A stretch of 64,000 nt of DNA. Source: a virus. The position numbers and the translations under genes are program-made. Below, in pieces: positions 14,758-60,062 of the stretch (position 1 is its first letter; every line of letters starts with the position of its first letter). The stretch is taken from the IMG/VR virus record IMGVR_UViG_3300028844_006119, positions 64,001 to 128,000 of that record; one strand, written 5' to 3'. Under the pieces are notes generated by a model, which saw only the letters and a program-made list of their open reading frames with translations, did not search any database and was not told the origin of the DNA.

Positions 14758-15936
14758 ATGTCTGTAATCGACCACCATGACGACCTATGCGAGTCCTTCC
14801 TGGCCTCTGTAGACCCCAATCAGGTGTCTGAGATCATGAAGACCTCTTCCTGGAGGGAGTCCTCGGACCTCCTGGACCGGGACTTTGCGCTCATCCTGGT
14901 GGACGAGGTCGGCAAGGAGCACAGGAAGTTTGCCTGTTTCGACTCCGGCAATGCGCTGATGTCGGAGTGGTACCTTTTGCACGCTGAGCACGGCCTAGAC
15001 AGCGACTCCGTCAAGACCGCCGCCGCCAACATCGTAGACTCCCTGGAGCACTACGGACTGACCCCTGCACCCGCTTCCGTTTACCTGGCAGACCGTACTT
15101 CCGGGGCAGATTCTCGGAGGGTTAAGGTAGCTGGGGCTCCAATGTCTGACTCCCACAGCTCTATTCGCGCCGCAAAGGGTGGGGCGATTGGGGGAGCAGC
15201 TCTGGGAGCGATTTCTGGAGCTAAGGGAGGGGGGACTCCTCTTCAGATCGCCGGTCGGATGCTAGGCAGAGGCGCCGCAGTGGGCACCGCTGGCGCGCTG
15301 GGAGTGGGCGGTATGGACTACACAGCCAAGAACGCCTCGGCGTTTGACTACGTAGCAGACGCTGCCGCTTCGTGGGACGACCTCGATCCGTACGACAGAC
15401 ACGAAGTTGCTGTAAATCTGGTGAAGGTCGCCTCCGCAGGCGGAGCAACCGTTCCTGGCCACATTCGCGCCTACAGCGGCACTTCCTTGAGCCCGAACTT
15501 CAAGAAGATCGCAGAGGCCCGCAGGGACTTCACCTCCCAGCAAGACACCCAGGACGGGTACACGCGGTTGTCGAAGATGGCCGCGGCCATGGACCCTGAT
15601 GATGTCGTCGAGGCCATGTACCTCCTAGACGAGCAGGCCCAGATCAACCACCGCTACGGAAGTCGCATCCCCGACCCAGTTCTGTCCGTCTATGGCACCA
15701 CCAAGGAGGCAGAGTTCTCCTGGACCCACGGCGGCGACTATGTGAACGAGAGGATGCTAAAGAGGTACGCGGGCAGCGATTCCTCCCAGAAGATGGAAGA
15801 TGTCTTCACCGATGATCTCAAGGATCTCTTTCGGAGAGACCCCATCTCTGTGTTCAAGCGGATGCCCGACGAGCAGAAGATCCTCCTCGCTAGAATGGCC
15901 TCCCAGTCCCGAGATAACAATAACGGCGGATACTGA
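14758..15936 (+). CDS. Virion-associated protein with multiple K-x-A sites and an internal glycine-zipper cassette
   Basis: VKTAA, VKVAG, KNAS, VKVAS, KKIAE, SKMAA, TKEAE; GGAG RBS before the ATG at 14758. Confidence 0.7.
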   Translation: MSVIDHHDDLCESFLASVDPNQVSEIMKTSSWRESSDLLDRDFALILVDEVGKEHRKFACFDSGNALMSEWYLLHAEHGLDSDSVKTAAANIVDSLEHYGLTPAPASVYLADRTSGADSRRVKVAGAPMSDSHSSIRAAKGGAIGGAALGAISGAKGGGTPLQIAGRMLGRGAAVGTAGALGVGGMDYTAKNASAFDYVADAAASWDDLDPYDRHEVAVNLVKVASAGGATVPGHIRAYSGTSLSPNFKKIAEARRDFTSQQDTQDGYTRLSKMAAAMDPDDVVEAMYLLDEQAQINHRYGSRIPDPVLSVYGTTKEAEFSWTHGGDYVNERMLKRYAGSDSSQKMEDVFTDDLKDLFRRDPISVFKRMPDEQKILLARMASQSRDNNNGGY

Positions 15937-16727
15937 TGTCCTTGTTCAAGGACGAGCAGGCTCATCCATTGATCCTCCTCAGGAAGTACCTGGGGATGTT
16001 CGGCATTGACGCCCTGGAGTGGGAGCCGCCCGTGATCAAGAGCTCGGTAGAGGATGAGACGGGGACTTCAATCGCCCGGATCAACCTGCTGAAGCTCATG
16101 GCCGCCATCGCCGTGGCCAATCACGATTCGTTCTGGAAGGACTGGCAGACGTTCCACTTCCTTACCGCTGCCTTGAACAACAACATCCCATCCGCCGCAG
16201 TCCTGTCGGATCAGACCGTGGGACAGATGATGACCGCGGTAGACATCGCGAACACCATACGTAAAGACTTGGGGAAGGCCACGTCAGTGCCTTCCTTTGG
16301 GGAGAAAGTCGCTCGGTACATCGCAGCGCAGGCCCTCGAGTCTGGAATTTGGTACCTGCCGTCCCCTCTAGGCTTCGCAAACAAGTACTGTGCCGGGCTC
16401 ATGCAGCGGTGCGGGAGATGCAGTAATGAGGAGGAGCGTCAGGATGACGGGCTCTGTAGTTATTGTACGGAGAGGTACAGCATGGACTCCCTGCAGAAGA
16501 TGGAGCCAGATCCCGACCTGGCAGGGCAATGGGACGCATCTAAGGTGAAGCCTTTTACCCTGCACCCATACGAGGGAGTAAGTCAGCGCCTGACCGAAGC
16601 TCTCACCCATAAGGACGTGGTCCTGGGGGAGACTCAGGATGACATCTGCGCCGCTAAACTGCTGACCGGACTGGAGTACATGAGCTATAGAAGGGCTCAA
16701 CTCAGGTCTCAAGGGGCGACTCAGTGA
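15936..16727 (+). CDS. Hypothetical protein with a CxxC...CxxC insert
   Basis: ORF coupled to its neighbours; CGRC...CSYC. Confidence 0.7.
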   Translation: MSLFKDEQAHPLILLRKYLGMFGIDALEWEPPVIKSSVEDETGTSIARINLLKLMAAIAVANHDSFWKDWQTFHFLTAALNNNIPSAAVLSDQTVGQMMTAVDIANTIRKDLGKATSVPSFGEKVARYIAAQALESGIWYLPSPLGFANKYCAGLMQRCGRCSNEEERQDDGLCSYCTERYSMDSLQKMEPDPDLAGQWDASKVKPFTLHPYEGVSQRLTEALTHKDVVLGETQDDICAAKLLTGLEYMSYRRAQLRSQGATQ

Positions 16728-17689
16728 TTTCCAGCGGCTCCCTCTTTTTCTTCAGCGACGAAATACAAAAGTGTGCAGGCATGCCTGCGCCTCAGCAAGC
16801 GCAGCAACCTGAGAAGAAACAGAGCTTTCTCTCCAGGAACAAGATGACTTTGGGAGCCGGCGCTCTTGCCGCAGGGATGATCCTAAAGAACCCCCAGGCA
16901 GCCTCCAAGTACCTGGGCCAAGTGAAGCAGATGGTCACTAACCCTAAGGCAGCCCTTCAGCGTGGCTGGAGATCTGGCTCATCCAACATCACCGGCAAGG
17001 TCCCCGGGGCCTCCGAGTCGGCGTCCAAGAGAGTCAGACTGTACAAGGACGTCTTAAGCTCGGCCGAGCAAGGCAAGCTTCAGTCCGTCAAATCCCTCGA
17101 CACTATTGGCGCGGGGGGAACTTCTGCGAGAGCTTCGGGCTGGGGAAGCGCGGGTAGGTCGTTCAGTAGAGCAGGACAAGAGCTAAAGATGTCCCCCGAT
17201 CTCACTAAGAGAGTGGGAGACATGCAAGCCAAGCTCAAGGCCGGAGAAGAAGTCTCAGAGCAAGCCTTGAAGGGCCTTTATGCTGAGATTCAGGGTGCTG
17301 GAAAGGGCCTTAAGATGAGGAAGGGCCTGTCGTACTATGCCCCTGGAGAGCGTACGATGATGACAGGTCTGGGCACAGGTCTGGGGGCAACGGCGGGCCT
17401 TGAGACCCACGATGCGGAAACAGGACGCAAGAGGGGCGTGGCGGAGCGAGTTGCTCGCGGGACTGTCGGTGCTGCGACTGGCACCGCGATGTCCTCCCTA
17501 TTCATGGGACGAGGCGCAAGGCTCAGCAGCAAGAACTTATTCACAGGAAATAGAGGCTCTCTGCTCAGCCAAAAGGGACTTCTGCCAGTCGCGGCAACGA
17601 CTCCCCTACTGGTGGGTACTGAGGCCGCTGGGGAGGTCGCGGGGAAGGGCGGAGAGCTGGCCGACAGAGCCTTTGGACAGAAATCATGA
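16724..17689 (+). CDS. Leader-bearing (FFFSDEIQKCA) basic, Gly-rich putative internal virion protein
   Basis: Shared leader motif, followed by Lys/Arg-rich sequence with Gly-rich hydrophobic segments. Confidence 0.65.
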   Translation: MISSGSLFFFSDEIQKCAGMPAPQQAQQPEKKQSFLSRNKMTLGAGALAAGMILKNPQAASKYLGQVKQMVTNPKAALQRGWRSGSSNITGKVPGASESASKRVRLYKDVLSSAEQGKLQSVKSLDTIGAGGTSARASGWGSAGRSFSRAGQELKMSPDLTKRVGDMQAKLKAGEEVSEQALKGLYAEIQGAGKGLKMRKGLSYYAPGERTMMTGLGTGLGATAGLETHDAETGRKRGVAERVARGTVGAATGTAMSSLFMGRGARLSSKNLFTGNRGSLLSQKGLLPVAATTPLLVGTEAAGEVAGKGGELADRAFGQKS

Positions 17690-19788
17690 ACGTAGTTTCT
17701 AGCGAATCAAACCGATTCAACCCGCGCCCTGTCGACTATGAGGGTGGCCGGGGCTTCGGCATTCGCTACCCGTCCCCCTTCTTCGATGTCGCGCAGCAGT
17801 TTCTTCCGTCCGACGTACACCAGCTCCATCACTGGTGTCGGTACTACTTTCTGACCAACCCGGTTATCAACGCTGCCTGCTCCAAGATGGCGGAGTACCC
17901 CGTCACTCCTCTCGTCTTTGAGACGGAAGACCCCAAGCTGGTAGAGCTGGGCAAGTCCCTAGAAGATCAGCTAAAGCTGCGATCTTTTCAGGTTGAAGTC
18001 GGACTAGACTACTTTGTCTACGGAAATGCGTTCATCTCGCTGTTCTTCCCGTTTGAGAAGTACCTCCTCTGCCCGAAGTGCAAGGAGCGTTACCGCGCCA
18101 GCAAGAACCGCTTCAGATACAAGTGGCGGAGCGGTCGCTTCTATCTGAAGGAGTGCAAGTGCGGGTACCAGGGGTACGCGAAGCAGCAGGATGTCTACAT
18201 CCGCAGCGCGCGCGACATTCGCCTGGTTCGGTGGAATCCAGAGAACGTCAACATCAAGTACAACGAGATCACAGGTAAGGCGAAGTACTACTTCAAGCTG
18301 CCTCGAGCGATCGCCAACGATATCAAGTTGGGCGACGCGGACACGATCGAGACGCTACCCCTTGAGTTCCTAGAGGCTGCCCGTAAGAAGAAGTCCCTCC
18401 TGTTTACTCAGGACAACCTCTATCACTTGAAGCGTCCGACGATTGCCCAGAAGGATCAGGGCTGGGGCACTCCCCTGATCTACCCCTTGCTGAAGGACGC
18501 GTTCTACCTGCAGGTCATGAAGAAGGCGAACGAGGCGGTCCTCATGGAACACATCGTTCCTATGAGGATACTCTTCCCTGGGCAGAGCACGGGCGGGAAT
18601 GAGGGTCCATACGGATCCTATAACCTGAGCAACTGGAAAAAGAAGGTAGACGCTGAGATCAACATGTGGCGTCGGGACCACAACTACATCCCAGTTCTGC
18701 CCGTGAACGTCGGGTTCCAGCAGATCGGCGGACAGGGCCGAGCCCTTCTGATGTACCAGGAGATGCGTCTTCTTTCGGAGCAGATGCTCGCGGGCGCAGG
18801 AATCCCTGTCGAGTTCATCTTCGGCGGGCTTCAGTGGAGCGGGTCCAGCACCTCCCTCCGGGCTCTGGAGAACATGTTCCTGGGGTACAACAAGCAGCGC
18901 CATGAGCTCGTAAACAAGTTCATCGTGGAGAAGGTTTGCTCCTTCATGCGTTGGCCCAAGATCTCGGTGCGCTTTGACAAGTTCAAGATGGCCGACGATC
19001 TGCAGAGAAGCATGTTCTACCTGCAGCTCAACCAGGCGCAGAAGGTCAGTGACCGCAGGCTGCTTGAGGAGATCGGAGAGAACTTCGATCTCGAGAACGA
19101 TCGCATGATGTCCGAGCTAAAGAAGAACCTTCAGACGCAGCGCACCATGCAGGTCGCCGGTGCTGACGTTCAGGGAGAGATCCAGCTTCGCACTTCCCGG
19201 TACCAGGCTAAGTCTCAGTCCCTAATGGCGAAGGCACAGGCCGAAGTCCAGATGGAGATGCAGAAGAAGCAGCTGGAGATGCAGCAGCAGATGCAGCAGC
19301 AGGTGCAGCAGGGTGCAAACCCTCAACAGGTTCAGGCGGCGCAGCAGGCGGCGCAGCAACAACAAGGCGCAGCAGCACAGGCCGCCCCGCAAGGTCAGGC
19401 TCAGCAGGGCGGAGGTCAGGCTCAGCAGACTCCCGGTATGCCGGACGGGGCCACCGCGTACGATGAGAACGCGAAGTCTCCTAACGACACGGGGATGCCC
19501 GCAGCTATGGCGGGTATGACTTCTCAGATCCAGCAGGGAGCTGGAGGAGTAGACCTTCGATACATCGCCCAGAGAGCCGCGGCGTTCTTGAAAACGGTCA
19601 AGAAGGAGCAGGGCCCTGAGGCCATGTACAAGTCTTTGGCCGAGATGCAAACCGGCAATCCGAATCTCTATCAGCTGGTTGTCCAGCTATTGAACGATAC
19701 AGGATCTAAGGAAAATCCCCAGAACGCCCAGGCGGCCCCCAAGCCTAACGGGAATCCGCAAGCGGATATTTCCCGTCAGGTGGGGTAG
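17686..19788 (+). CDS. Portal protein with Zn-ribbon insertion and Gln-rich C-terminal tail
   Basis: YYFLTNPVINAA, DYFVYGNAF, WNPENV, LYHLKR, GWGTPLI and GIPVEFI occur in the order expected for phage portals. Confidence 0.75.
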   Translation: MNVVSSESNRFNPRPVDYEGGRGFGIRYPSPFFDVAQQFLPSDVHQLHHWCRYYFLTNPVINAACSKMAEYPVTPLVFETEDPKLVELGKSLEDQLKLRSFQVEVGLDYFVYGNAFISLFFPFEKYLLCPKCKERYRASKNRFRYKWRSGRFYLKECKCGYQGYAKQQDVYIRSARDIRLVRWNPENVNIKYNEITGKAKYYFKLPRAIANDIKLGDADTIETLPLEFLEAARKKKSLLFTQDNLYHLKRPTIAQKDQGWGTPLIYPLLKDAFYLQVMKKANEAVLMEHIVPMRILFPGQSTGGNEGPYGSYNLSNWKKKVDAEINMWRRDHNYIPVLPVNVGFQQIGGQGRALLMYQEMRLLSEQMLAGAGIPVEFIFGGLQWSGSSTSLRALENMFLGYNKQRHELVNKFIVEKVCSFMRWPKISVRFDKFKMADDLQRSMFYLQLNQAQKVSDRRLLEEIGENFDLENDRMMSELKKNLQTQRTMQVAGADVQGEIQLRTSRYQAKSQSLMAKAQAEVQMEMQKKQLEMQQQMQQQVQQGANPQQVQAAQQAAQQQQGAAAQAAPQGQAQQGGGQAQQTPGMPDGATAYDENAKSPNDTGMPAAMAGMTSQIQQGAGGVDLRYIAQRAAAFLKTVKKEQGPEAMYKSLAEMQTGNPNLYQLVVQLLNDTGSKENPQNAQAAPKPNGNPQADISRQVG

Positions 19789-30146: not shown

Positions 30147-30961
30147 TTCCCTTCTACCCCAAGTTTGGAAGCCAGGAGGATGCTCCAGGGTATGGCCCTG
30201 CTGCGTCCGAGGATAAGTGCGAGAACTGCGCGCATTATCGTAACTTGGGGAACCAAGGGCACTGCGAGAAGTTCTCGTTTATGTGCCAGCCTGAGTACGC
30301 CTGTGACGACTTCCGGCCTTCGGGAGTAATCAAGGAGTCCAGCGTGGTTGCGGAGGCTGCGGCCCTCCCCCGGAAGAAGGTCGAGGCGGTACAGGACACT
30401 GCGCGTGCCCTAAAAGAGAGAAACATCTCTCGAGCCCTGAACTCTGCCCAAAAAGACCTGATGCCGGGGAGATACGACAAGGCCATTGAGAACCTAAAGC
30501 ATCTATACCCCAAAGAGGCTGCTTCTCCTTTCATGCAGGGACTCGATCCTCTTGCAGGGGAGGTCGCCCGGGGAGCTATCCGGGATCGGCTGAATCCCGA
30601 CGTCTCTTCGGAGGAAATGACCCGCAGACGGAGACTCGCGACGCTGGGCGGAGTAGTCGGAGGCGGAGTCCTGGTCCCTGGCGCAGTCTCCGCTGTCCTA
30701 GGGGCCGGTGTTGGAGCTATGGGGAATAGAGGGTTGGGGAGAGTTACGGGAGCCGCGCGCCAGGCAGGGCGGGCTCTGCGAGGAACCTTTACCCGGGCAG
30801 GAAGTCCTGCTCTTATTGCCGGGGCAGGGATCGGAGCAATGGGGGCTCGCTCCCAATACGATTTAGGGGCGGGGCTTGCCGAGCTTGCCGCCGAGAAGCA
30901 CGCCTCTACCGACCACAGCTTGCGGTCTTTTCTTAGGAAGAATCATGAACAAGAACGCTAA
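30143..30961 (+). CDS. Cys-rich N-terminal domain plus glycine-zipper module
   Basis: CENCAHY...C...C...CDDF; IKESS, PKEAAS, EKHAS. Confidence 0.65.
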   Translation: MIPFYPKFGSQEDAPGYGPAASEDKCENCAHYRNLGNQGHCEKFSFMCQPEYACDDFRPSGVIKESSVVAEAAALPRKKVEAVQDTARALKERNISRALNSAQKDLMPGRYDKAIENLKHLYPKEAASPFMQGLDPLAGEVARGAIRDRLNPDVSSEEMTRRRRLATLGGVVGGGVLVPGAVSAVLGAGVGAMGNRGLGRVTGAARQAGRALRGTFTRAGSPALIAGAGIGAMGARSQYDLGAGLAELAAEKHASTDHSLRSFLRKNHEQER

Positions 30962-32933
30962 GGTCTTTGGGGCCACCCACGACTCCGACAGAGCGAACAA
31001 TGCGGCCATCCCCTACTCTGGTAGGCGGCGGGAATATGTTCTCTACCTCAATGCGAAGTCTAAGGAATCCCCCACCAAGCTGGTTACGGCGCTCCTAACT
31101 GGGGCAGGTCTCGGAGGACTGGCGGGAGGACTTGCCGGCCTTGGTGGGGGCGCGAAAGGTGCCCTAGTTGGTATCCTTGCTGGGGCCCTTGGTGGCTCCC
31201 TCTTCGGCGCCCTGGCTAAGGCCATCGATGATGGGAACATTCAAGAGGCTAAGCGCATCCTCCGTAAGGGCCACATCGACCAGGGGCTTGGGGAAGCCAT
31301 CATGCGAAACCAGCGAGCCAAGGAACAGGTGGCCCGGAGCAGACACTCCGAGACCCAACGCCGTCTCTCTGGAATCGAGAGAGGTATGAGTCGAGCCAGC
31401 AGCTACCCACACCGTAGTCGTAGGGTCACTGTGAAGGTCGGATCTCTTTGTTCCAAGATCGCAGGTACCTTGAACGAGTCCGACTTCGAGCGCTTCAATG
31501 AGGTGTTTTCCGACGCCAATACTCGACGAATGATTGAGAAGAACGCCTCCGTCATGGAGTGCCTCACCCTCCTGACTGACTCGGAGATTCACAGCACCGA
31601 CAAGATGGCTTCGGCGGCGGCCTCGGCATTCACGATGGGCTACGACGTGGTCCAGGTGAGACCTTCCGGCTACGGCTACACAGTCAAGGTGTCCGCTGCT
31701 CCGCAGGGCGTGGCCCCGCAAGAAACCCAGATGACTCAGCAGCAGGCTCAGCAGGCTCTTCCTCCTGAGATGCTTCAGGCTGCAGACCAGCAGGGCGCTG
31801 GCACGGTCACCAACGTGCAGGCAGACCCCGATCCGCTCGCGGAGAAGATGGCGCCGGCTACCGGGTTCGGCCTCTACAAGGTCACCGATGCTACTTCAGG
31901 CAAGCAGGTCGTTGGCTATGTCATTCCCGGACTGTTTGATCCGGTCTCGGGACAGCCCTCGCAGGTGAGCCTGTTCACCAACGGCTCCGCATACTGCGTG
32001 CAGCCGGTCATCAGCGGCTCCCTGTTGGGCGTGAACTTCAATCTTCCCATCCCGGAGAGCCCGGAAGTTCGCGGTTTGGGCGTGTTCGTCAAGAACAACG
32101 AGAAGGCCATCATCGCGACCATGCCGTACAACATCATCACTAAGGTGTCGGTTGAAGGTAAGGGCTACTTCGCCGCGCAGGACATGCAGGGCAACGACAT
32201 CCGCATCATCCCTTCTGAGGGCATTGCAAAGCCGGTTGCGACCTCTGCCACCGAGATTGTGATTCCCGCAGACTACAAGTTCATGCCTCTCGAGAACCCC
32301 ATCCAGCTTGCTGGCGGGGAAGAGCTGATGAAGTCCGCTCAGGCCAACGCGTTCCATACGATGATGGAGCTCCGGGCCTGGAGTGGAGGATGTCGCCTCG
32401 ATGGTCCCGTCTTCGAGAAGGTGGGATCGGGTGAGCACGACTGGGCCGACGGTGTCTTCTGGATGGCCGCTGCCGGTGTCCCCCAGAACGTAGGCTCTGC
32501 ACTTCTGGAGAAGGCAGCTTCCACAGGAGAGCCTCTCCGTCTGTTTGGTCTTGCGCCGCTTTCTACTCGAGAGGAGTACGTGGTCGAGGCAGAGAAGGAA
32601 GCCATGGCGGAAATGGCAGACATCGAGATTCCCCAGAGAGTCAACCTCCTTAAGGAGATCGCAGCGGTGACCTTCTCCAAGGAAGCATCGGCACTTGTGG
32701 ACACTACGTCTGTGGATGCCGTGCTTGCCCTCAACTTCCTCAACCCCGAGAATGTTGAGACCTTTGTAGAGCACCTGCCGCAGCTTGAGCACGCTTCCGA
32801 GAAGCTTGCCAATATCGTTCTGGCGTCTCAGCTGGGGCTTCAGTCCATCTCTAAGACCGCAGCCGTCCGTGCGATGTTTGCACTTGAAGATGTCATCTCA
32901 GGACTCAAGAGCCTCAAGACGTACTCGGTGTAA
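30945..32933 (+). CDS. Large virion/core protein with N-terminal glycine zipper and many K-x-A sites
   Basis: GAGLGGLAGGLAGLGG; SKIAG, EKNAS, DKMAS, MKSAQ, EKAAS, EKEAM, SKEAS, SKTAA. Confidence 0.7.
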   Translation: MNKNAKVFGATHDSDRANNAAIPYSGRRREYVLYLNAKSKESPTKLVTALLTGAGLGGLAGGLAGLGGGAKGALVGILAGALGGSLFGALAKAIDDGNIQEAKRILRKGHIDQGLGEAIMRNQRAKEQVARSRHSETQRRLSGIERGMSRASSYPHRSRRVTVKVGSLCSKIAGTLNESDFERFNEVFSDANTRRMIEKNASVMECLTLLTDSEIHSTDKMASAAASAFTMGYDVVQVRPSGYGYTVKVSAAPQGVAPQETQMTQQQAQQALPPEMLQAADQQGAGTVTNVQADPDPLAEKMAPATGFGLYKVTDATSGKQVVGYVIPGLFDPVSGQPSQVSLFTNGSAYCVQPVISGSLLGVNFNLPIPESPEVRGLGVFVKNNEKAIIATMPYNIITKVSVEGKGYFAAQDMQGNDIRIIPSEGIAKPVATSATEIVIPADYKFMPLENPIQLAGGEELMKSAQANAFHTMMELRAWSGGCRLDGPVFEKVGSGEHDWADGVFWMAAAGVPQNVGSALLEKAASTGEPLRLFGLAPLSTREEYVVEAEKEAMAEMADIEIPQRVNLLKEIAAVTFSKEASALVDTTSVDAVLALNFLNPENVETFVEHLPQLEHASEKLANIVLASQLGLQSISKTAAVRAMFALEDVISGLKSLKTYSV

Positions 32934-39494: not shown

Positions 39495-39512
39495 CCCTAC
39501 TCCGGGCGGTTC

Positions 39513-40677: not shown

Positions 40678-40687
40678 GAGTCTAATC

Positions 40688-41209
40688 ATGGAAATTCCCG
40701 CAGAAGCATACGAGCTTTACGCTCGAGGCGAGATCACTGACCGGGAGATGCACGAGCTTGAGAAGTTCGCAGAGGCTCTCGAGAAGACCGCCTTCGATTA
40801 TGGGAAGGCGGGGCTGATGATGGGCGGAATGGCGCTGGCTGCTCCGGCGCTGGCGTATGCCGCAAACCAGGTCCCTAAGACCTTGCAGGGTATGGCGAAC
40901 TCCATGCGCTTCGAGTCCGGCCTAAACAAGGCTCTCGAGATCAACCCGCAGCTCGGTAGTGCTAAGGACCCGAACTTGCGCATGGCGTACAAGACGCTCC
41001 AGACGACCAACCCGGACTACGCCAAGGATCCTCTGATCGCCGGTACCATTCTGGACATGGTCATGTCGAACCGCATGGACCCTGATGATCCCGGCAGCGC
41101 ACCTCGTTTCGACCCGACACTTCTCAATGAGATTCAGAAGAGCGCTCCCAGATCGCCTGACATGACCCAAACCATGGGAAGCGCGGCAATGACCGCCGCC
41201 AAGGGATAG
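40688..41209 (+). CDS. Putative internal virion protein with acidic propeptide ending in EKTA
   Basis: ELEKFAEALEKTA followed by hydrophobic GLMMGGMALAAPALAYA. Confidence 0.65.
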   Translation: MEIPAEAYELYARGEITDREMHELEKFAEALEKTAFDYGKAGLMMGGMALAAPALAYAANQVPKTLQGMANSMRFESGLNKALEINPQLGSAKDPNLRMAYKTLQTTNPDYAKDPLIAGTILDMVMSNRMDPDDPGSAPRFDPTLLNEIQKSAPRSPDMTQTMGSAAMTAAKG

Positions 41210-41218
41210 AGGTCTGAT

Positions 41219-43192
41219 TTGGACAAGTACGCGCTATACCCCGGAAAGGCTGCTGACGGCCGGCCCAGAGTTCACCTGGTTGAGCCGGGTACTGGGTATG
41301 GTATGGCCAGTACTGACGGAGTCACCAAGACCGCGTCGGGAGAGCACCTTCCGGAAGTCATGGAGCTTATTGAGTCGATCGAGGCGCAGCCCGGAAGGCT
41401 GTACTTGGTCAACTCAGCTCTGGGTGCTGGGGAGAACGTTGGGTTCAATCTTCGAGGTGACTGGTTCACTGAGAAGGGCCTGAATCACACTCCTCCCGGA
41501 TTCGAGCAGATCCCGGTGTGGGATATCGAAGCGCGGAGAAAAGCCGCAAACATCACAGAGGCTGTGCCTCGGTGGGGGTCTTTGGCGTGGGGCTACCCTA
41601 CGTTCTACAACGCGCATAGATTCCGGCACCACGTCAACAAGGACCCAAACAAAGCCTACGGATTCATTCTGGGGGCTTTTTGGGATGACCGTATGAAGCG
41701 GGTCATCCTGGTGTCTGAGCTGATTAAGACCATGTGCGCCAAGATGGGGGCTCTTGATCTGTACAACCGGATCCAGGGTGGGGACTTTCCAGACTCCAGC
41801 ATGGGCAGCAAGGTCCCGTACGACCGATGCGCTATTTGTAACCACCATGCCCGCACACCAATGCAGTATTGTGAGCATGTCCGTAAGGGAGCTTCTCCTC
41901 CCTATGGAATGAAGTCCATGCTCCCGGACGGGCGTATCTGCGGTGTTTACAACGACTACCCGAGATTCTTCGACGATTCATTTGTGTTTGTCGGGGCCGA
42001 GCGATCTGCGAAGGTGATGTCGGATGTCACGAATCAGGTCTCGGGGAGAAACGCGTACTCCCAGAAGATCTACCCGTTCTCGCGCCCCATCCAGAAGATT
42101 GCTTCTGCAGCCGGGGTAGCGGATGTAACTCCTATCTCTGATGCTCCGTCTCCGCAGACGCAGAAGCCGAACATCCCGGACTTTGTTTTAGAGGAAAAAC
42201 TTACTCGGGCTGTCCAGCTGATTCCCGTAAGCACCTCTGCTGAGCGAGAGACGCTTAGATTCTTCATGCAAGAGCGCCTAGCGGAGGAAAGAGTCCGTGC
42301 GGGGACAATGTCCTCCACTGAGATGCAGATGTGGAAGGACCTCTCGCGGAACGTATTACTGAGGCAGTACGGGGTCTCCCCAGAGCAGATGGTCCACCTA
42401 AAGGTACTGTTCAACACCCGAGCAAATCAGGTACTTGGGATTACTAAGGTTGCGGAGATGCCCAAGTGGGCAGAGATTCTGAAGAGAATCCCCGCCCCCT
42501 CTCCGGAGCACATGAGCATCGTGCGTAGAGAGGAGAAGTGCCTCCCCGAGATTCCTAGAGAAATCCTGGACGAAATCGCAGATGCTCCTGGGCCAAATCT
42601 CCGTGCTGCAGCACGGATGGGCATCGTGGCCCGTCCCAATGAGTTCCAGTACATCATGCTGCGGCAAAGAGACCCGGACTTAGCGAGTAGACTCCACACG
42701 AATAGAGTGGTATTTCGCCCTACTTCCCTTCGTAGGGAGACATCAGCGTTCAATACGGGCTATGTCCCTCGCGACACTATGCACTCCATCATCCATAAGT
42801 TGGCACCTCTTATAGCCTCACGCTCCTTTGCGCCTTCGGCTATTAGAGCGCGGATCATTAAGATCACGCCCATGCCTAAGATCGCAGAGTTCTCAGAGAC
42901 CGAGAACTTGGATGAGGTCTCAGAGCTATACAATCAGTATCGCCTGGGGCTTATGCTATCTCCTACAGACCTCACGGCAGTGACCGTGCCCTCTGTTTTC
43001 TCCGATAGAATCGATGACGATGTGAAAATTGCCGGTGATTCTGTTAGTCTTTCTGCCCTAATGACGAGCCTTGCCTATTGGCCCGGTTTACAGTTAGGAT
43101 TAAACTCGGCTGAGGGGTCCTCCTCCGAAGACGCCACCCACTCTCAACCCCATATTGGAGAAATCCATCATGTCACTCCTTACGGAGCTTGA
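41219..43192 (+). CDS. Prohead (capsid maturation) protease
   Basis: NLRGDWF, FRHH, DSSMG followed by CAIC..YCEH, FFDDSFVFVGAE; lies upstream of the scaffold and capsid genes; carries its own KTAS/KIAS sites. Confidence 0.7.
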   Translation: MDKYALYPGKAADGRPRVHLVEPGTGYGMASTDGVTKTASGEHLPEVMELIESIEAQPGRLYLVNSALGAGENVGFNLRGDWFTEKGLNHTPPGFEQIPVWDIEARRKAANITEAVPRWGSLAWGYPTFYNAHRFRHHVNKDPNKAYGFILGAFWDDRMKRVILVSELIKTMCAKMGALDLYNRIQGGDFPDSSMGSKVPYDRCAICNHHARTPMQYCEHVRKGASPPYGMKSMLPDGRICGVYNDYPRFFDDSFVFVGAERSAKVMSDVTNQVSGRNAYSQKIYPFSRPIQKIASAAGVADVTPISDAPSPQTQKPNIPDFVLEEKLTRAVQLIPVSTSAERETLRFFMQERLAEERVRAGTMSSTEMQMWKDLSRNVLLRQYGVSPEQMVHLKVLFNTRANQVLGITKVAEMPKWAEILKRIPAPSPEHMSIVRREEKCLPEIPREILDEIADAPGPNLRAAARMGIVARPNEFQYIMLRQRDPDLASRLHTNRVVFRPTSLRRETSAFNTGYVPRDTMHSIIHKLAPLIASRSFAPSAIRARIIKITPMPKIAEFSETENLDEVSELYNQYRLGLMLSPTDLTAVTVPSVFSDRIDDDVKIAGDSVSLSALMTSLAYWPGLQLGLNSAEGSSSEDATHSQPHIGEIHHVTPYGA

Positions 43193-44123
43193 ATCACGGG
43201 GCGTCACAGCTGAGGATCTTGAGAAAGCGGCATCTGTCCGTTTATTTGAGAAGGCTGCTGCCGCCGAAGACGTGGATCTCGGCTCACTTGATGAAAATCA
43301 GGTAGAAGACCTCTACGTCACATTCCTTTCCAACCAGTCCAATGATGACTACACAAAAGAGGCTTCCGCCATGAACGACGAAATCGTTGACCTTTTCGAA
43401 AAGACCGCTGCAGCCGAGGGCATTGACCTCGACGACATGGCGGACCACGAGCTTGCTGAGCTCTACAACCACTACGTTGAGAACGTTCTGCCCGAGCAGG
43501 TCGAAGAGTACGAGAAGGGTGCTTCGTACGAGGTCGACGAGGCCACCGAGAAGCTCGCTGAGGCCGAGATTCTCGGTCGCCACATGGCGCGTGCCTACAT
43601 GGATGAGTTCGACAAGGAGGCTGCGAGCGCAGCAGCGGCCGGTGCCAGACTGGACGCTGCTGCGGCCGAGGCCGGACGATGGGGCCAGTCGGGCAAGGTC
43701 GAGGCGCAGAACGCCGCGAACCGTGCCAAGGAATCGATTGGACGAGGCTACGAGTCTGCCAAGGCGAAGGGCAAGGCTGGCTATGAAGCTGGTGTCCGTG
43801 GTGCTAAGGCCACTGGTGCCGCAGTTGCTTCCGGTGCTCGGTCCTACGGCAATGCTATGACTGGTAAGCAGTTGCGAGAGGCTGTCTCCACCATGCGTAA
43901 GCAGAAGGGTGGATATCGATCTTCCGCAATGGGCCGCGGTAAGGCCCTTCGTGGCGGTGCCAAGACGCTAGCCGCATGGGGCGCAACCGGTGCAGCTGGC
44001 TACGGCGCCAAGAAGGGCTACGACAGGATGACCAAGAAGTCCTCGATTGACGAGATCATTGAGGACCGCGCCAACGAGCTTCTCGGAGAGTTCCTCTTCG
44101 AGAGCGGTGTCGAGCTGGACTGA
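43170..44123 (+). CDS. Acidic scaffold-like protein with internal repeat and an embedded cationic cassette
   Basis: LFEKAAAAEDVDL / LFEKTAAAEGIDL repeat; basic Gly/Ala segment between KEA and KKS. Confidence 0.7.
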   Translation: MSLLTELESRGVTAEDLEKAASVRLFEKAAAAEDVDLGSLDENQVEDLYVTFLSNQSNDDYTKEASAMNDEIVDLFEKTAAAEGIDLDDMADHELAELYNHYVENVLPEQVEEYEKGASYEVDEATEKLAEAEILGRHMARAYMDEFDKEAASAAAAGARLDAAAAEAGRWGQSGKVEAQNAANRAKESIGRGYESAKAKGKAGYEAGVRGAKATGAAVASGARSYGNAMTGKQLREAVSTMRKQKGGYRSSAMGRGKALRGGAKTLAAWGATGAAGYGAKKGYDRMTKKSSIDEIIEDRANELLGEFLFESGVELD

Positions 44124-44125
44124 GA

Positions 44126-44413
44126 GTGGAAATGCCTGCCAACACAGACATCATGAGATTCTTCTCAGACGAGATCTGTAAGTTGGCAGGCATGCCCGCA
44201 CTCAAGGTTCCGGGCATGGGCAGTAAGGGACAACTATCTTCATTGATGGCCCGACCTGCCCATGCCCAGGCCGGTAACTTCGCAAAAGCACAAAAAGCAC
44301 TGAAAACACCCACCACAGGAAGCGCCCCGAAAGGGATTAATCATGCTTCGTTAAAGGCGGTGGGCTCCACGGGATCTGTATCTTTACCGCCACCTCCCGT
44401 GAAAACCGTCTAA
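44126..44413 (+). CDS. Leader-bearing (FFSDEICKLA) basic peptide
   Basis: Shared leader; Lys/Pro-rich cargo without acidic residues. Confidence 0.65.
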   Translation: MEMPANTDIMRFFSDEICKLAGMPALKVPGMGSKGQLSSLMARPAHAQAGNFAKAQKALKTPTTGSAPKGINHASLKAVGSTGSVSLPPPPVKTV

Positions 44414-44437
44414 ACTTCCCACTTTTAGGGTGACCCA

Positions 44438-45178
44438 ATGAGCAACTACCGAAGCATGATTGATGACGCACTCCAGAGTGCAAGAGCCCGTATCGATGGC
44501 GGCAGCGCAGATCTGATGAAGACCGCTTCTGCCCCCGAGAACAGCATGGTCAAGGAGGCGTCCGAACTCGCAGACGCCCTTGAGTATGTTGCCCACGCCT
44601 CTACGAACACTGGCTCCGCCGCTGACGCTGTTCGTGGCGAAATGGTTCGTTCCTTCTTTAAGAGCGCGGCAGGCGCTCCTGCCCAGAGCAGCACATCTGT
44701 TCAGGGCACCCAGGCACACGCCCCCACTGGAAAGAAGATCCAGGCAAAGGGCCAGTCTGTCGGAGGCTCGGCTCCTCAGTCGGAGACCACTCCCGCCCCC
44801 GCAGATGGCCAGAAGCCGCTGCTCGAGTCCTTCAAGCAGGCAGAGGGTCAGTCTCTCTACGACATCCTGATGGCCAGTAAGACCGCAGGCAAGGGTGGCC
44901 CCTCCGAGAGCACGGCTACTGAGTCTGCTCAGGGCATTCCTTCTGGTAACGAGAACTCCAACCGTCAGGCGATTCTCGAGAGCAACGAGGCTCCGGTCAA
45001 CGCGACCCGCCGTCAGGCTAAGGCTCCCGTCCGTAAGCGCCTCGCGGAGGCGTTTGCCCACACGAACAGCACCACTGGCGACTCCACGCTGAATGCAATG
45101 TTCCCTCAGGCCGCAGGTAAGGGATCCCACAAGATCGCCTCCGTGAAAGATCGGCTGAGCGCAATGGCTGGTGAGTAA
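44438..45178 (+). CDS. Scaffold/core-like low-complexity protein
   Basis: MKTAS, VKEAS, FKSAA, SKTAG, HKIAS. Confidence 0.7.
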   Translation: MSNYRSMIDDALQSARARIDGGSADLMKTASAPENSMVKEASELADALEYVAHASTNTGSAADAVRGEMVRSFFKSAAGAPAQSSTSVQGTQAHAPTGKKIQAKGQSVGGSAPQSETTPAPADGQKPLLESFKQAEGQSLYDILMASKTAGKGGPSESTATESAQGIPSGNENSNRQAILESNEAPVNATRRQAKAPVRKRLAEAFAHTNSTTGDSTLNAMFPQAAGKGSHKIASVKDRLSAMAGE

Positions 45179-45485
45179 TATGTCCTCTATTAGAGACAGG
45201 CTTGAGAAGATCGCTGCTGCCAAGGACGATAAGGGTGACCTCGCCCTTTATGTCTCTAAGAAGCTCTCGGAGAAAAGAGCATCCGTTGCGGAGTACTCTG
45301 TGCTCTTCGATAAGGTTGCCTCCGGTGACCTAGGAGAGCACACCCGTCAGGCCCTACTCGGCATCTGCGACACGATCCCAGAACCCACTACTCTTTCGGA
45401 AAAGACAGCATCTGTGTATGATGTTATGGACTTTTCTGAGAATGACGCAAGAAGAGCTAGACTAGATCAGCTCCTAAAGCGTTAA
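45171..45485 (+). CDS. Small core-like protein
   Basis: EKIAA, EKRAS, DKVAS, EKTAS in 104 aa. Confidence 0.7.
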   Translation: MSNMSSIRDRLEKIAAAKDDKGDLALYVSKKLSEKRASVAEYSVLFDKVASGDLGEHTRQALLGICDTIPEPTTLSEKTASVYDVMDFSENDARRARLDQLLKR

Positions 45486-45509
45486 ACTTCCTTCCGCCGG
45501 AGAATTAAC

Positions 45510-45875
45510 ATGATGAAGATCGGGAATGCACAGCTTGCTGCTGTCTCCGCAAAGGGGGCGGCGACTATCCGTACTCTGGTGGAGAAAGTCGCTAGCTTGG
45601 AGACGGAGAACGTCTCCCTCCGAACAAAACTAGCTTCTATTGCGCGCGACTCTCAGATCTCTGAGCTTGCACGCGAGATGGAAGACAAGAGCCTTAATGT
45701 TGACATGACTTTCGAAGAAAAGGTTGCACACCTGCGGGGTCAGGCAAACCTAGAGAACGTCACTGAAGCAGTAAAGATGGCGAGCGCGGGCCATGTCCGA
45801 CTTGCCGATGTTTCCGACCATCCCGGGACGGGAGCGATCGACCCACTCACCTCTTTCTGCCTTTCCGGCGAATAA
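45510..45875 (+). CDS. Coiled-coil scaffold-like protein
   Basis: EKVAS, TKLAS, EKVAH, VKMAS. Confidence 0.7.
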   Translation: MMKIGNAQLAAVSAKGAATIRTLVEKVASLETENVSLRTKLASIARDSQISELAREMEDKSLNVDMTFEEKVAHLRGQANLENVTEAVKMASAGHVRLADVSDHPGTGAIDPLTSFCLSGE

Positions 45876-45893
45876 TCAACTAGGAGATACGTC

Positions 45894-46508
45894 ATGGCTG
45901 GCACTTTCGTCACGCTCGTTAATCCCGGGTATTCCTCTCTGTTTACCCGAGACCTTTCCACTGCTACGACGGCTAACGTCGAGGGCAGTACTTCCCTGAA
46001 TCTGTTTGATCCCGATTCGACCCATCCTCTTCAGGAGGGTGAGTGGCTCGGCATCAACAGTAGCTACAAGTTCTCTCGTCCTTCGGGCGGAGACGTCACG
46101 GGATCTTCCAACTCGACCGGAGTCCTGGAGATCGTCGAGGACGCGCAGAACACGGCCGCTACCGGCCTGTGCTACATGTACTTCCAGGAGCGCGGTCGTT
46201 ACGACGCCCAAGTCACCAAGAAGGCTCACTGCATCGTCGGACCGGGGAACTTCGAGTTCCGCACCAAGATGATCGTCTGCGCAGCCGGGGACGAAGGCGA
46301 AAAGGTCTTCGTGTATGTCTGCCAGGACTCCAGCAACCGTCTAGTCTCGGCTTTGGTCTCCGCTAGCGCGGCCATCGCTGCGACTACGGCTGTCGCTCCC
46401 GCCGTGGGTACCGCCGCCACCACTGACGGCTCTTGGTACGCTGGTGTTATTTCCCGTGTTCACGGGACCAACGACGCTACCGTGCTGTTCCAGCCCGGCT
46501 TCCTCTAA
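45894..46508 (+). CDS. Probable head decoration/cement protein
   Basis: Beta-rich 204-aa gene immediately upstream of the major capsid gene. Confidence 0.5.
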   Translation: MAGTFVTLVNPGYSSLFTRDLSTATTANVEGSTSLNLFDPDSTHPLQEGEWLGINSSYKFSRPSGGDVTGSSNSTGVLEIVEDAQNTAATGLCYMYFQERGRYDAQVTKKAHCIVGPGNFEFRTKMIVCAAGDEGEKVFVYVCQDSSNRLVSALVSASAAIAATTAVAPAVGTAATTDGSWYAGVISRVHGTNDATVLFQPGFL

Positions 46509-46531
46509 ACCCCCAGTCCTAGGAGAACATC

Positions 46532-47668
46532 ATGGATTATTCCGCTGAAATGGTGAATTCGGGCTTCATTGAGCGCCTCGAGACTGAGGGTTCCACGAAG
46601 ACCGCCGCCGCCTCTCTCAACTACATCAAGGATCGCCTGCGCGAGTCCAGCTTTGCCGACATGATCGTTCCGAACGAGCGTGTTGTGCGTGGCGACTTGC
46701 AGCGCAGCACCCAGCACGACACCCTCGTGAAGATCGTCGACATCGAGCCGGGTTCCCGCGCGATGGCCGTCAACTTCCGTGGTCAGCCTACCGCTGAGTA
46801 CGTGTCTGGTAAGCGCTACGCAATCGGCTTCTTCACCATCTCGAGCCTCAAGTTCGAAATCGTGGAGCAGGAGCTGATGGCATACGAGATGCCCGTCACC
46901 CGCATCATCGAGGAGAACAGCCTCAAGGACATGGTCGAGGTCAAGGATCGCGAGTTCCTGAACCACGTCGAGTCCTGCATCGATGCAATGCAGAGCGAGG
47001 GTGGTATCACCACCTTCAACACCTCGACTTGGACAGCTGGTTCCCAGTTCTCGAAGATCAAGGGCTCTCTGGCTCTGCAGCAGACCACCGACAACTTCAA
47101 CGTCCAGGCAATCCAGCGGACTGACATTGTGGAGCTCAAGAAGCTTCTCAAGCGTCAGGTGCTTGATAGCTCCGGTAACGTGGTTCGTCAGGGTCGTCTT
47201 CGTCCCGCGCTGATGCTCATGACTGAGTCCGACGCTGACGACTTCGATCAGTGGACTCACGAGGACTACGGTGATCGTCTCCAGAGCGAAACCGCTCTCG
47301 ACGGCTACACCTACAACAAGGTCCTCGGTCTGCGCATCGTCCGTACCATCAAGAACGACATCCTGCGTGAGGGCAACGTTTACGTGTTCACCGCACCGGA
47401 GTTCTTCGGCCGGAACTACACGCTGAACGATGTCAAGTTCTACATCGATAAGATTGCGAACCGCATCTTCTGGCAGGCATGGATGGACGTGGGCATGGGC
47501 TTCGGCAACATCGCCTCGGTCGTCAAGCTTGAGCTCTACTCCGGTAGTGTCAGTGGCACGCCGGATTCCGGCTTTGCTGCAGCGATGCCGACTGACGAAG
47601 AGAACCTGGGTGGCCAGAACAACAAGGCCGCTGATGGTCTGACCTACCCGAGCCTCAACATCTTCTAG
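46532..47668 (+). CDS. Major capsid protein (HK97-fold expected)
   Basis: 378 aa; follows the protease/scaffold genes; AGGAG RBS; strongly biased codons; followed by a terminator. Confidence 0.75.
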   Translation: MDYSAEMVNSGFIERLETEGSTKTAAASLNYIKDRLRESSFADMIVPNERVVRGDLQRSTQHDTLVKIVDIEPGSRAMAVNFRGQPTAEYVSGKRYAIGFFTISSLKFEIVEQELMAYEMPVTRIIEENSLKDMVEVKDREFLNHVESCIDAMQSEGGITTFNTSTWTAGSQFSKIKGSLALQQTTDNFNVQAIQRTDIVELKKLLKRQVLDSSGNVVRQGRLRPALMLMTESDADDFDQWTHEDYGDRLQSETALDGYTYNKVLGLRIVRTIKNDILREGNVYVFTAPEFFGRNYTLNDVKFYIDKIANRIFWQAWMDVGMGFGNIASVVKLELYSGSVSGTPDSGFAAAMPTDEENLGGQNNKAADGLTYPSLNIF

Positions 47669-56994: not shown

Positions 56995-57003
56995 GATAAG
57001 TAA

Positions 57004-57612: not shown

Positions 57613-57635
57613 TCTCCATCCTTTAGGAGCCTAAA

Positions 57636-58334: not shown

Positions 58335-58344
58335 AGGAAGAGAC

Positions 58345-58587: not shown

Positions 58588-58594
58588 GTAAGCG

Positions 58595-58882
58595 GTGGAT
58601 CTTGAAGTCCTACATTTCTTCTCTGATGAGGTGGAGAAGACTGCGTCTGGCCCGTGGAATCAGAACGCTGGCGCGTTCGCAAGTGTCGCCGGGGAGCTGG
58701 ACGATGGCGGCGGGTTCACTGTCTCTGATCTTCGGAAGTACCTGCGCTACCCACAGTCGCGATCCTCAGTTCAGCGACCTACTAAGCCTACGGTGATGTG
58801 GACCTCCTCGGATGCAGAGGACTGGCTCATCTTCAGCCCAAACAAGCACCGGGCGTTTGTTCGCTGGGCTAGAGGCAAATGA
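58595..58882 (+). CDS. Leader-bearing (MDLEVLHFFSDEVEKTA) small protein
   Basis: GTG start; leader duplicated in the next gene. Confidence 0.7.
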   Translation: MDLEVLHFFSDEVEKTASGPWNQNAGAFASVAGELDDGGGFTVSDLRKYLRYPQSRSSVQRPTKPTVMWTSSDAEDWLIFSPNKHRAFVRWARGK

Positions 58883-59127
58883 TGGATCTCGAAGTCTTAC
58901 ATTTCTTTTCTGATGAGGTGGAGAAGCTCGCAGCGAAGAGTCGGCACAACTACTACATGCGGAATCGTAATCAGATTCTGCAGAAGCAGCGTCAGTACCG
59001 AGCCAAGAACAAGGCCGGTATTGCACGCAGGCAGAAGATGTACCGGCGGAAGGTAAAGATGGGCGCGCATAGACAGCGTAAGCGCATCTCTACGGGCCAC
59101 TCCTACACCTACGGCGGGTACAGATAG
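58879..59127 (+). CDS. Leader-bearing (MDLEVLHFFSDEVEKLA) protamine-like peptide
   Basis: Cargo is very rich in Arg/Lys/Tyr and has no acidic residue. Confidence 0.7.
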   Translation: MMDLEVLHFFSDEVEKLAAKSRHNYYMRNRNQILQKQRQYRAKNKAGIARRQKMYRRKVKMGAHRQRKRISTGHSYTYGGYR

Positions 59128-60062
59128 TGGATGTCCCTGACCTATTCGACCAGAAGAGGAAGAAGGTCTCTGGGCTAAAGATGCCCAGGCAGTTTACTCC
59201 GCGGTTACCCGGCGCATCCACTAAGGGGCAGGCTCCCATAAACCCGTTCTCAGGAAATAAGATGAAGGTCGCATCCCTGTCTTCTTTCCGAGAAGCTCAG
59301 CTCATAAAGACTGCCTCTGCGGAAGACGCTCATCTCTACTTTGAGATGTGCAAGCTTGCGGATACTGGGGATGAGCTTAAGATTCGCATGTTCCTAGCGC
59401 AGCATCCTGAGATGGAGAAAGACGCTGGGATCATCGGCCACGGCTTCAGGCTGCTGAGTAAGGCCCTGGGAGGGGCAGGTAAGACTTTCAACAGTAGCCG
59501 CTTGACTGCCGCCGCAGGCAAAGCTGAATACGCAGCAGCAAAAAGGTTCAGCGGGGCGGCGGTAAATCCTAGAAACCTAGGGCAGGCCGCTAAGGAAACC
59601 CAGTACGCCTCTCTAGCGGGAGCTTCTGGTAAGCGGGGAGGGGAGCTCACCGCTGCCGCAAAAAACATCCGAGAAGCCAAAGCCGTCAAATCTCAGGTAA
59701 ATGCTGGGCAGTTTGCTGCACCTGCTGCGGCTCCTGCTCCCTCTAACGTCGTCCCTGGCGCCCCTTCCGCGTTTAAGGGACAGCCGGACAAATATGTAAA
59801 GGCATATGCGGACGTCGGGGATGAGACAGCTAAGAGGACCCTGGCCGGCAGAGTAAGTGAGAAGCAGCTCGAAGCTGTCGCGAAGACCGCTCCTACTCCT
59901 AAGACGGAGCTGCTCTCGAACAGTACTCTCGGCAAGGCCATCGTGGGCACGGCCGCCGTAGGCGGGGTCGGGGCTGTGGGCTACGGAGGCTACAAGGGCG
60001 TTCAGCGCGGAAAGGCGCAGAACCTGCAGCAGCAGGCTCGCGGGTTCAACTACGGGATGTAG
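59127..60062 (+). CDS. Putative internal virion protein with K-x-A sites and C-terminal glycine zipper
   Basis: MKVAS, IKTAS, CKLAD, EKDAG; AAVGGVGAVGYGGYK. Confidence 0.7.
   Translation: MDVPDLFDQKRKKVSGLKMPRQFTPRLPGASTKGQAPINPFSGNKMKVASLSSFREAQLIKTASAEDAHLYFEMCKLADTGDELKIRMFLAQHPEMEKDAGIIGHGFRLLSKALGGAGKTFNSSRLTAAAGKAEYAAAKRFSGAAVNPRNLGQAAKETQYASLAGASGKRGGELTAAAKNIREAKAVKSQVNAGQFAAPAAAPAPSNVVPGAPSAFKGQPDKYVKAYADVGDETAKRTLAGRVSEKQLEAVAKTAPTPKTELLSNSTLGKAIVGTAAVGGVGAVGYGGYKGVQRGKAQNLQQQARGFNYGM

Follow-up and report, generated by a model that had tools for sequence, protein, structure and literature searches.

The sequence analysed here, referred to as the window, is a 64,000-bp stretch (bases 64001-128000) of one 142,186-bp virus record, IMGVR_UViG_3300028844_006119 of IMG/VR, whose completeness is estimated at 77%. 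A plus-strand block at 14713-60062 carries the virion-region genes, among them an open reading frame (ORF 41219; ORFs are designated by their first nucleotide) for a predicted prohead protease. The subject of this work is a short peptide motif that recurs in the proteins of this block, Lys, any residue and Ala followed by Ser, Ala or Gly (K-x-A-[SAG], in pattern notation K.A[SAG]), and its relation to the protease. In the analysis 67 ORFs were curated; the virion region comprises 42 ORFs, and its head core consists of the 11 ORFs at 39486-47668. Comparison of about 50 ORFs with PHROG and Pfam identified little beyond a terminase, a capsid protein, a weakly matching protease, an RNA polymerase, a sigma factor and a gp5-like OB domain. 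In a megablast comparison of the head region with GenBank phages no near relative was found.

Enrichment and conservation of the K-x-A-[SAG] motif

K.A[SAG] was counted in each ORF and compared with 1000 composition shuffles of the same ORF. The head core contains 34 sites against 5.9 expected, and the virion-region ORFs outside the head core 33 against 18, whereas the non-virion ORFs are at chance level (7 found, 6.7 expected). The RNA polymerase (ORF 20606) is also at chance level (4 versus 3.9), as are the replication genes, and the terminase and the portal protein have no site. Three giant upstream ORFs contain none versus 2.4 expected. The sheath family PF04984 had no match in the record, and sheath and tube ORFs were not identifiable; the contrast between head and tail was drawn from the three giant ORFs and from four unnamed ORFs that follow the capsid gene (48803, 50155, 52222 and 57636) and carry no site. 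At least one site is present in 22 ORFs, eight of which (14713, 30876, 39486, 41219, 43155, 44438, 45171 and 45510) are individually enriched (p ≤ 0.004), and about 13 have sites that are conserved in relatives. Outside the head core approximately half of the single sites are attributable to chance.

These counts bear out the original prediction, made from the sequence of the window by eye, that the motif is dense in virion proteins and sparse in the terminase and the replication genes; it had also proposed a count of head against replication genes with shuffled controls, and in that count the motif is head-specific. Its figure of four motifs in gene 45171 is exact. The roughly ten motifs that it assigned to a gene starting at 39513 (here ORF 39486) are eight by the strict definition and 11 if any residue is allowed after the Ala, which explains the higher number. 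Likewise, the eight motifs reported for a gene starting at 30945 (here ORF 30876) are six strict sites and 12 K.A of any kind. The estimate of about 20 substrate proteins was too generous, support being good for about 13 of the 22 ORFs with a site. The suggestion that the motif marks the proteins inside the head does not hold in this simple form: single sites arise by chance, and the portal protein, which is likely to be a virion protein, has none.

The motif was also recovered by an unbiased enumeration, in which about 50,000 gapped patterns of two or three residues were ranked in the virion-region ORFs. K.AS ranked first (37 occurrences, 6.3 expected, p = 6e-17) and EK.A second, and nothing comparable to K.AS was obtained in the other ORFs. 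The order of the residues matters: K.AS occurs 37 times, SA.K 6 times and K.SA 4 times. Lys is not replaced by Arg. At the motif Ala is encoded by all four of its codons and Ser by codons of either family, so the signal reflects selection on the peptide and not a DNA repeat. K-x-A is followed by Ser in 37 of 61 window sites and directly preceded by Glu in 16 of 61. If positions are numbered from a presumed bond after the Ala (P1 Ala, P3 Lys), the pooled consensus [LMIF]-[EV]-K-x-A-[S>A>G]-[AV] has a hydrophobic residue at P5 and Glu or Val at P4. As a control, the same enumeration was applied to T4 gp20-gp24; it returned patterns of the I.E type, and K.AS was found once in 2174 residues. I.E is the experimentally known gp21 code of T4. 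A Glu-type, T4-like code was considered as a head-specific signal in the window and rejected, [LI].E being enriched similarly in non-virion ORFs; [SAG].E is not enriched (48 versus 53.6 expected). It can be concluded that the K-x-A-[SAG] motif is real and not a product of chance.

For conservation tests 14 IMG/VR loci with orthologous head modules were fetched, the orthologs being 38-62% identical. In these the Lys and Ala residues of the motif are more conserved than the other Lys and Ala residues of the same proteins. Site retention was scored against two related genomes, designated G001 and G002. Of the 57 virion-region sites, 40 are retained in one or both of these; of the 11 control sites, only 2 are (Fisher p = 0.002). 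In the RNA polymerase only one of the four sites is kept though its orthologs are 64-66% identical, and these are therefore chance sites. Several sites persist in poorly conserved surroundings: KTAS78 of ORF 45171 and KTAS28 of ORF 44438 are present in 8/8 orthologs with flanks 11% and 33% identical, respectively, and KTAS121 of ORF 39486 in all orthologs with flanks 33% identical. P2 varies at conserved sites, and some sites shift position within variable linkers between orthologs (turnover). As judged from these alignments, the sites are under purifying selection.

The predicted protease ORF 41219 and its family

The only family match of ORF 41219, and a weak one, is to PHROG 18299 ('head maturation protease'; aa 126-224, E 1e-4). 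A Pfam search of the ORF at E ≤ 0.01 gave no family, and a sequence search of the PDB with the protease gave no match. PF03420 (S77) was not found in the whole record at E ≤ 1, nor were the other prohead-protease families PF04586 and PF00574 (S78, ClpP) found in the record. An AlphaFold2 (AF2) model of aa 1-330 has a mean confidence (predicted local distance difference test, pLDDT) of 83.5. Its main low-confidence stretches, aa 22-41 and 292-312, are disordered linkers at the two ends of the protease domain and contain KTAS37 and KIAS293, the two predicted autoprocessing sites; besides these only aa 324-330 fall below pLDDT 50. When the model was compared with known structures by VIA-align, the best match was T4 gp21 (5jbl; Z 9.2, root-mean-square deviation 2.8 over 133 residues), followed by the herpesvirus proteases at Z 6-8.3, with those of varicella-zoster virus and pseudorabies virus at 8.2-8.3 (the others were from herpes simplex virus, human cytomegalovirus, Kaposi's sarcoma-associated herpesvirus and Epstein-Barr virus). 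The top 32 entries were all gp21 or herpesvirus proteases, and unrelated MCE-domain entries appeared from Z 5.2. Foldseek E-values were weak (0.04-0.1). According to the model, ORF 41219 has the gp21/assemblin fold.

His138, Ser194 and Asp252 are invariant in an alignment of 45 sequences, and Asp252 is a candidate for the third residue of the triad. When the 45-sequence profile was aligned with T4 gp21 by hhalign, the sole aligned segment placed Ser194 on T4 Ser140, the whole match having an E-value of 0.26. Of 49 homologs with 31-43% identity, 39 carry K.A[SAG] at aa ~28-33, and in 36 a site is present near the C-terminal domain boundary. KTAS37 and KIAS293 bracket the region common to distant homologs, and cutting at KIAS293 is predicted to free the protease domain. 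A complex prediction with protease aa 42-291 and the first 60 residues of the capsid protein (score 0.02) gave no verdict either way.

The family of the protease domain is large (2336 clusters at 50% identity). Cys204, Cys207 and Cys218 are near-invariant and lie in a Cys-rich insertion (aa 202-247) between the Ser strand and the Asp252 strand, which may be a metal-binding module. Several homologs with a length of about 1000 aa (P0058, P0083, P0088, P0092, P0096, P0100, P0108, P0112 and P0120), have Hint_2, Intein_splicing and LAGLIDADG_3 domains, and in these the alignment to ORF 41219 breaks at about aa 197-217, which suggests that inteins are inserted near the catalytic Ser region of this head protease. 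Gp97 of Mycobacterium phage Myrna (locus L105, 1211 aa) is annotated as 'tape measure'; its gene directly precedes that of the major head protein, its N-terminus matches the protease family (E 3e-4), and it is probably a mis-annotated protease fusion.

IMG/VR was scanned with the profile of the protease family, and 59 loci were chosen only for encoding a protease 32-45% identical to that of the window. In total these contain 783 K.AS against 101.8 expected. K.AS was the top pattern of the a.bc type in 50 of the 59 loci and among the top three in 56. Some lineages favour K.AE, K.AQ or K.AA, P1' shifting while K.A stays fixed. Homologous proteases (29-32% identity) are also encoded by the cultured Salmonella phage Arash, by Vibrio phages D69, D148 and D181 and by Bacillus phage G (gp19). 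In the head module of Arash L.K.A ranked first (21 versus 2.1), EK.A second and K.AS third (13 versus 1.7); in that of D181 K.AS ranked second (19 versus 3.5), just below the acidic run E.E.E; in phage G it ranked first with a weaker signal (10 versus 2.0) and is placed at the flanks of the protease. About a third of the Arash and D181 sites have Glu before the Lys. The capsid proteins of Arash and the Vibrio phages are 25-26% identical to that of the window, and in Arash and D181 (25%) they have KEA|G at aa 27. These phages differ from the window in that their RNA polymerase subunits are encoded by separate genes.

That a single protease matures many head proteins by reading a motif is textbook knowledge for T4 and phiKZ-like phages; T4 gp21 sites have the form (L/I)-x-E, with capsid-targeting propeptides on the internal proteins, and those of phiKZ gp175 and SPN3US gp245 the form A/S/G-x-E. 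To our knowledge, every characterised phage enzyme of the gp21 fold cuts after Glu. Numerous head proteins are cut at a three-residue motif by T4 gp21, phiKZ gp175 and SPN3US gp245, which also take off N-terminal propeptides, break up long ones and process themselves (PMC5694885, PMC10052503). The system of the window resembles these in that one short motif recurs in many head proteins and that removal of propeptides, fragmentation and self-processing are predicted. With T4 gp21 (MEROPS S77) the protease shares, besides the fold, an apparent His...Ser order with nearly the same spacing (56 residues in ORF 41219, 55 in T4) and the position of the gene in the head module ahead of scaffold-like and capsid genes. 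It differs from gp21 in its sequence (see above), in a motif whose P3 is Lys and whose presumed P1 is Ala and not Glu, in its length of 657 aa with the 360-aa C-terminal extension and the Cys-rich insertion, and in the predicted self-cleavage at both sides of the domain.

The R and M sites at which herpesvirus assemblin (MEROPS S21) cuts have the form (V/L/I)-x-A|S. The likeness to this enzyme comprises the fold class, Ala-Ser at the presumed bond and the predicted self-release from a longer precursor with a scaffold-like C-terminal part. In contrast to assemblin, P3 is Lys and not hydrophobic, the hydrophobic residue of the window motif being at P5; the candidate third residue is Asp252, as in the phage enzymes, and not a second His; and dozens of sites are spread over more than 10 candidate substrates, compared with two sites in one precursor family. 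Pfam comparison of ORF 41219 gave no match to assemblin (PF00716).

Candidate substrates and neighbouring genes

The protease, the proteins that carry the best supported sites and other genes of the block are listed in Table 1.

Table 1. Features of the virion-region block (positions in the window; sites are K.A[SAG], expected numbers are from composition shuffles)
Feature	Position	Strand	Remarks
407-aa protein	14713..15936	+	5 sites (aa 101, 138, 206, 238, 288), 0.68 expected
321-aa protein	16724..17689	+	leader FFFSDEIQ-KCA|G, aa 8-19 (nt 16745-16780)
Portal protein, 700 aa	17686..19788	+	blastp to Bacillus phage G portal gp14, E 1e-15; 0 sites, internal negative example
Fused beta-beta' RNA polymerase, 2112 aa	20606..26944	+	Pfam Rpb2_6, Rpb2_7, Rpb1_2, Rpb1_3, Rpb1_5; 4 K.AA sites
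685-aa protein	30876..32933	+	start 30945 in a public record; 6 sites, 1.1 expected; 4-5 of 6 kept in relatives
Large terminase, 595 aa	35984..37771	+	PHROG 675, E 5e-60; 0 sites
Helical head protein, 302 aa	39486..40394	+	8 sites (aa 44, 75, 108, 121, 142, 225, 240, 248), 0.72 expected
Predicted prohead protease, 657 aa	41219..43192	+	putative N-propeptide aa 1-39, domain aa 42-291, 360-aa C-terminal extension; 4 sites, 0.56 expected, p ≤ 0.004
KTAS aa 37-40, predicted N-terminal autoprocessing site	41327..41338	+	8/8 orthologs
Folded protease domain	41342..42091	+	His138 41630-41632; Ser194 (DSSMG) 41798-41800; Asp252 41972-41974
KIAS aa 293-296, predicted C-terminal autoprocessing site	42095..42106	+	7/8 orthologs; flanks 32% identical
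Acidic Ala-rich protein, 322 aa	43155..44123	+	6 sites, all at aa 24-157, 1.4 expected; directly after the protease
95-aa protein	44126..44413	+	leader RFFSDEIC-KLA|G, nt 44159-44191; site in 3/5 orthologs
Head protein, 246 aa	44438..45178	+	5 sites (aa 28, 39, 75, 148, 232), 0.94 expected; KTAS28 and KTAG148 in 8/8 orthologs
Head protein, 104 aa	45171..45485	+	4 sites (aa 13, 35, 48, 78), 0.22 expected
Head protein, 121 aa	45510..45875	+	4 sites (aa 15, 26, 40, 89), 0.27 expected; 3 of 4 kept
Major capsid protein, 378 aa	46532..47668	+	PHROG 2522; single KTA|A, aa 23-26 (nt 46598-46609), invariant in 7 orthologs
Two adjacent small ORFs, 58595-58882 and 58879-59127	58595..59127	+	each begins MDLEVLHFFSDEVE-K-x-A; leaders at 58613-58648 and 58900-58935
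Ala/Lys-rich protein, 311 aa, possible substrate	59127..60062	+	sites at aa 47, 61, 98; 3 found, 1.7 expected, alone not significant

The single site of the major capsid protein predicts a propeptide of 25 aa. Several head-core proteins contain multiple sites. The product of ORF 39486 is predicted to be cut into pieces of 8-83 aa; its sites stand out as conserved islands in which P2 varies, some of them showing turnover, and in an AF2 model of moderate confidence (pLDDT 72) seven of the eight lie at helix ends or in low-confidence linkers. ORF 43155 is, by its position, a candidate for the scaffold. All six of its sites are kept in both G001 and G002, and the Lys of its motifs is 93% conserved compared with 39% for its other Lys residues.

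Outside the head core, ORF 30876 gave no family or fold lead in PHROG, Pfam or the ESM Atlas. In ORF 14713 a conserved C-terminal domain lies past the last site, and four of the five sites are kept in G001, G002 and four aligned orthologs, the orthologs having extra sites in the variable linker. Between KVA|G138 and KNA|S206 this protein has a 68-aa Gly/Ala-rich cassette (aa 141-205), in place of which the four aligned orthologs have short linkers with extra K.AS; an upstream site has also been lost, the window having KTSS and the orthologs K[TE]AS. For ORF 59127 no ortholog was found that could be used for a conservation test.

A site at aa 5-51 is present in 17 of the 42 virion-region ORFs, where 3.7 would be expected; short N-terminal leaders that end at the motif on several unrelated head proteins are reminiscent of a T4-style propeptide system. 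Four otherwise unrelated ORFs (16724, 44126, 58595 and 58879) have the leader FFSDE[IV]x-K-x-A in common, and the neighbours 58595 and 58879 agree over the whole of MDLEVLHFFSDEVEK. From its sequence it looks like a portable leader for targeting and cleavage. The KLAA16 site of ORF 58879 is kept in G001; the site of ORF 16724 is not kept at the aligned column in G001 or G002, so support for it is weaker. Upstream of the window, at genome positions 16242-19564 and 32958-33791, there are four ORFs each with K.A[SAG] at aa 8-13: an endonuclease VII-like protein, a zinc-ribbon protein, a 494-aa protein with a 'DNA pilot'-like C-terminus and a sigma factor. These may be processed virion cargo.

The portal gene is about 20 kb from the protease-scaffold-capsid cluster (39486-47668), with the RNA polymerase gene and baseplate-like genes between them, so that the head module is split in an unusual way. 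In the RNA polymerase the beta domains (Rpb2_6, Rpb2_7) precede the beta' domains (Rpb1_2, Rpb1_3, Rpb1_5), forming a compact fusion of the multisubunit type inside the block of virion genes. The beta and beta' halves are two genes in Vibrio phage D181, and Arash gp216 matches part of the fused protein.

Interpretation of the motif

Judged from the enrichment, conservation and placement of the sites, from their co-occurrence with the protease family, and from the enzyme's fold and its invariant residues, we infer that the sites are probably cleaved and that the enzyme which recognizes K-x-A-[S>A>G] and cuts there is probably ORF 41219, the prohead protease of the phage itself. The scissile bond would most probably be Ala|Ser, with Lys at P3 and Ala at P1. 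A cut after Ala is favoured because small residues are present on both sides, because assemblin cuts Ala|Ser and because K.A remains fixed while P1' drifts. The original prediction had the protease cut after K-x-A; the indirect tests all fit its recognition code, and the cut after Ala is the part that we infer by analogy. In the envisaged course of events the protease would enter the prohead tethered via its C-terminal extension and free its catalytic domain (aa ~40-295) by cutting both flanking sites. It would then take off the 25-residue propeptide of the major capsid protein, trim the N-terminal leaders of small head proteins, including those of the FFSDE type, and break the scaffold-like and core proteins (39486, 43155, 44438, 45171, 45510, together with parts of 14713 and 30876) into small fragments.

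Several considerations weigh against this interpretation. The position of the bond is not readable from sequence and has been deduced from the small P1 and P1' residues and from assemblin. At the level of sequence the enzyme has no significant similarity to T4 gp21 (hhalign E 0.26, no Pfam match), and the fold Z-scores are moderate. All loci with the motif were found via the protease, and they may be one large clade with common head genes; therefore the co-occurrence does not by itself show that it is the protease that reads the motif. In the head module around gp97 of Mycobacterium phage Myrna, the most distant cultured relative tested, no enrichment of K.AS was found, and the K-x-A code may not reach the most distant relatives. 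The paper on the Arash virion proteome makes no mention of processing (PMC10585845). Finally, with the record estimated to be 77% complete, another protease could be encoded in the missing part.

The sites could also be recognized by the protease and cut elsewhere, either after the Lys, as in HK97 where the cut is Lys|Ser, or after the frequent Glu at P4. The Lys is as invariant as the Ala, Glu is the commonest residue before it both here and, in about a third of the sites, in Arash and D181, [LI].E is 2.1-fold enriched in the head core, and all characterised gp21-type enzymes cut after Glu (PMC5694885). We nevertheless regard a cut at either place as unlikely, taking into account that only about a quarter to a third of the sites have Glu before the Lys, Val being nearly as common, that [LI].E is also 1.6-fold enriched in the non-virion ORFs and thus generic, and that it is missing from the first 30 residues of the capsid protein; moreover, the small residues flank the Ala-Ser bond as in assemblin, and K.A is fixed in the lineages in which P1' shifts to K.AE, K.AQ or K.AA. 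A motif that is bound and left uncut, serving for docking or capsid targeting through the scaffold, the capsid interior or the C-terminal extension of the protease, would account for its position at the end of conserved FFSDE-type leaders on unrelated proteins, in the manner of a targeting signal. The two roles can coincide, the capsid-targeting sequence of T4 being both a targeting signal and a cleavage site. Docking alone is an improbable explanation, as it leaves unexplained the 4-8 copies per small protein at linker positions, the sites that flank the protease domain across homologs at 31-43% identity and the turnover of sites within variable linkers.

Cleavage by another protease, whether of the host, an unrecognised second one of the phage, or one encoded in the missing ~23% of the record, has the precedent of staphylococcal phage 80alpha, whose capsid and scaffold proteins are trimmed by a protease of the host, and the record is, after all, only ~77% complete. 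That such an enzyme is responsible seems very improbable to us: the motif follows the phage protease family in phages of unrelated hosts (Salmonella, Vibrio, Bacillus/Lysinibacillus), which makes a host protease less likely, the sites flank the domain of the ORF 41219 protease itself, and S77, S78 and ClpP genes were not found in the record. The richest proteins are helical and contain 10-18% Ala, and the motif might be seen as a by-product of composition or of coiled-coil periodicity in Ala/Lys/Ser-rich scaffold proteins; the shuffles, the reversed and permuted motifs, the conservation relative to the flanks and the 59 distant loci all reject this explanation, and we attach practically no weight to it.

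In the literature we found no description of a Lys-x-Ala (K-x-A) phage protease motif; the publications on Arash and phage G mention no protease code and do not address cleavage specificity. If K-x-A-[S>A>G] is the code of ORF 41219, the protease would represent a new specificity in a widespread, unannotated family without a Pfam model. In thousands of environmental phage genomes, where almost all head genes are labelled 'hypothetical', propeptides, mature N-termini, scaffold and cargo would become predictable, and the specificity would be a functional tie to herpesvirus assemblin with its Ala|Ser cut. The idea is testable, since cultured relatives (Arash, Vibrio D69/D148/D181 and phage G) and virion mass-spectrometry data exist. 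A broader proposal, for and against which the arguments appear to us evenly balanced, is that a large, mostly uncultured clade of 130-200-kb phages (more than 2,300 protease clusters at 50% identity), with Arash, the Vibrio D-phages and megaphage G as cultured members, has re-tuned a protease of the gp21/assemblin fold to Lys-x-Ala|Ser, that this code and the portable N-terminal leaders together form a general address-and-release system for head cargo, and that the P1 Ala links the phage and herpesvirus proteases not only in fold but also in function. The processed head proteome would then be readable from sequence alone.

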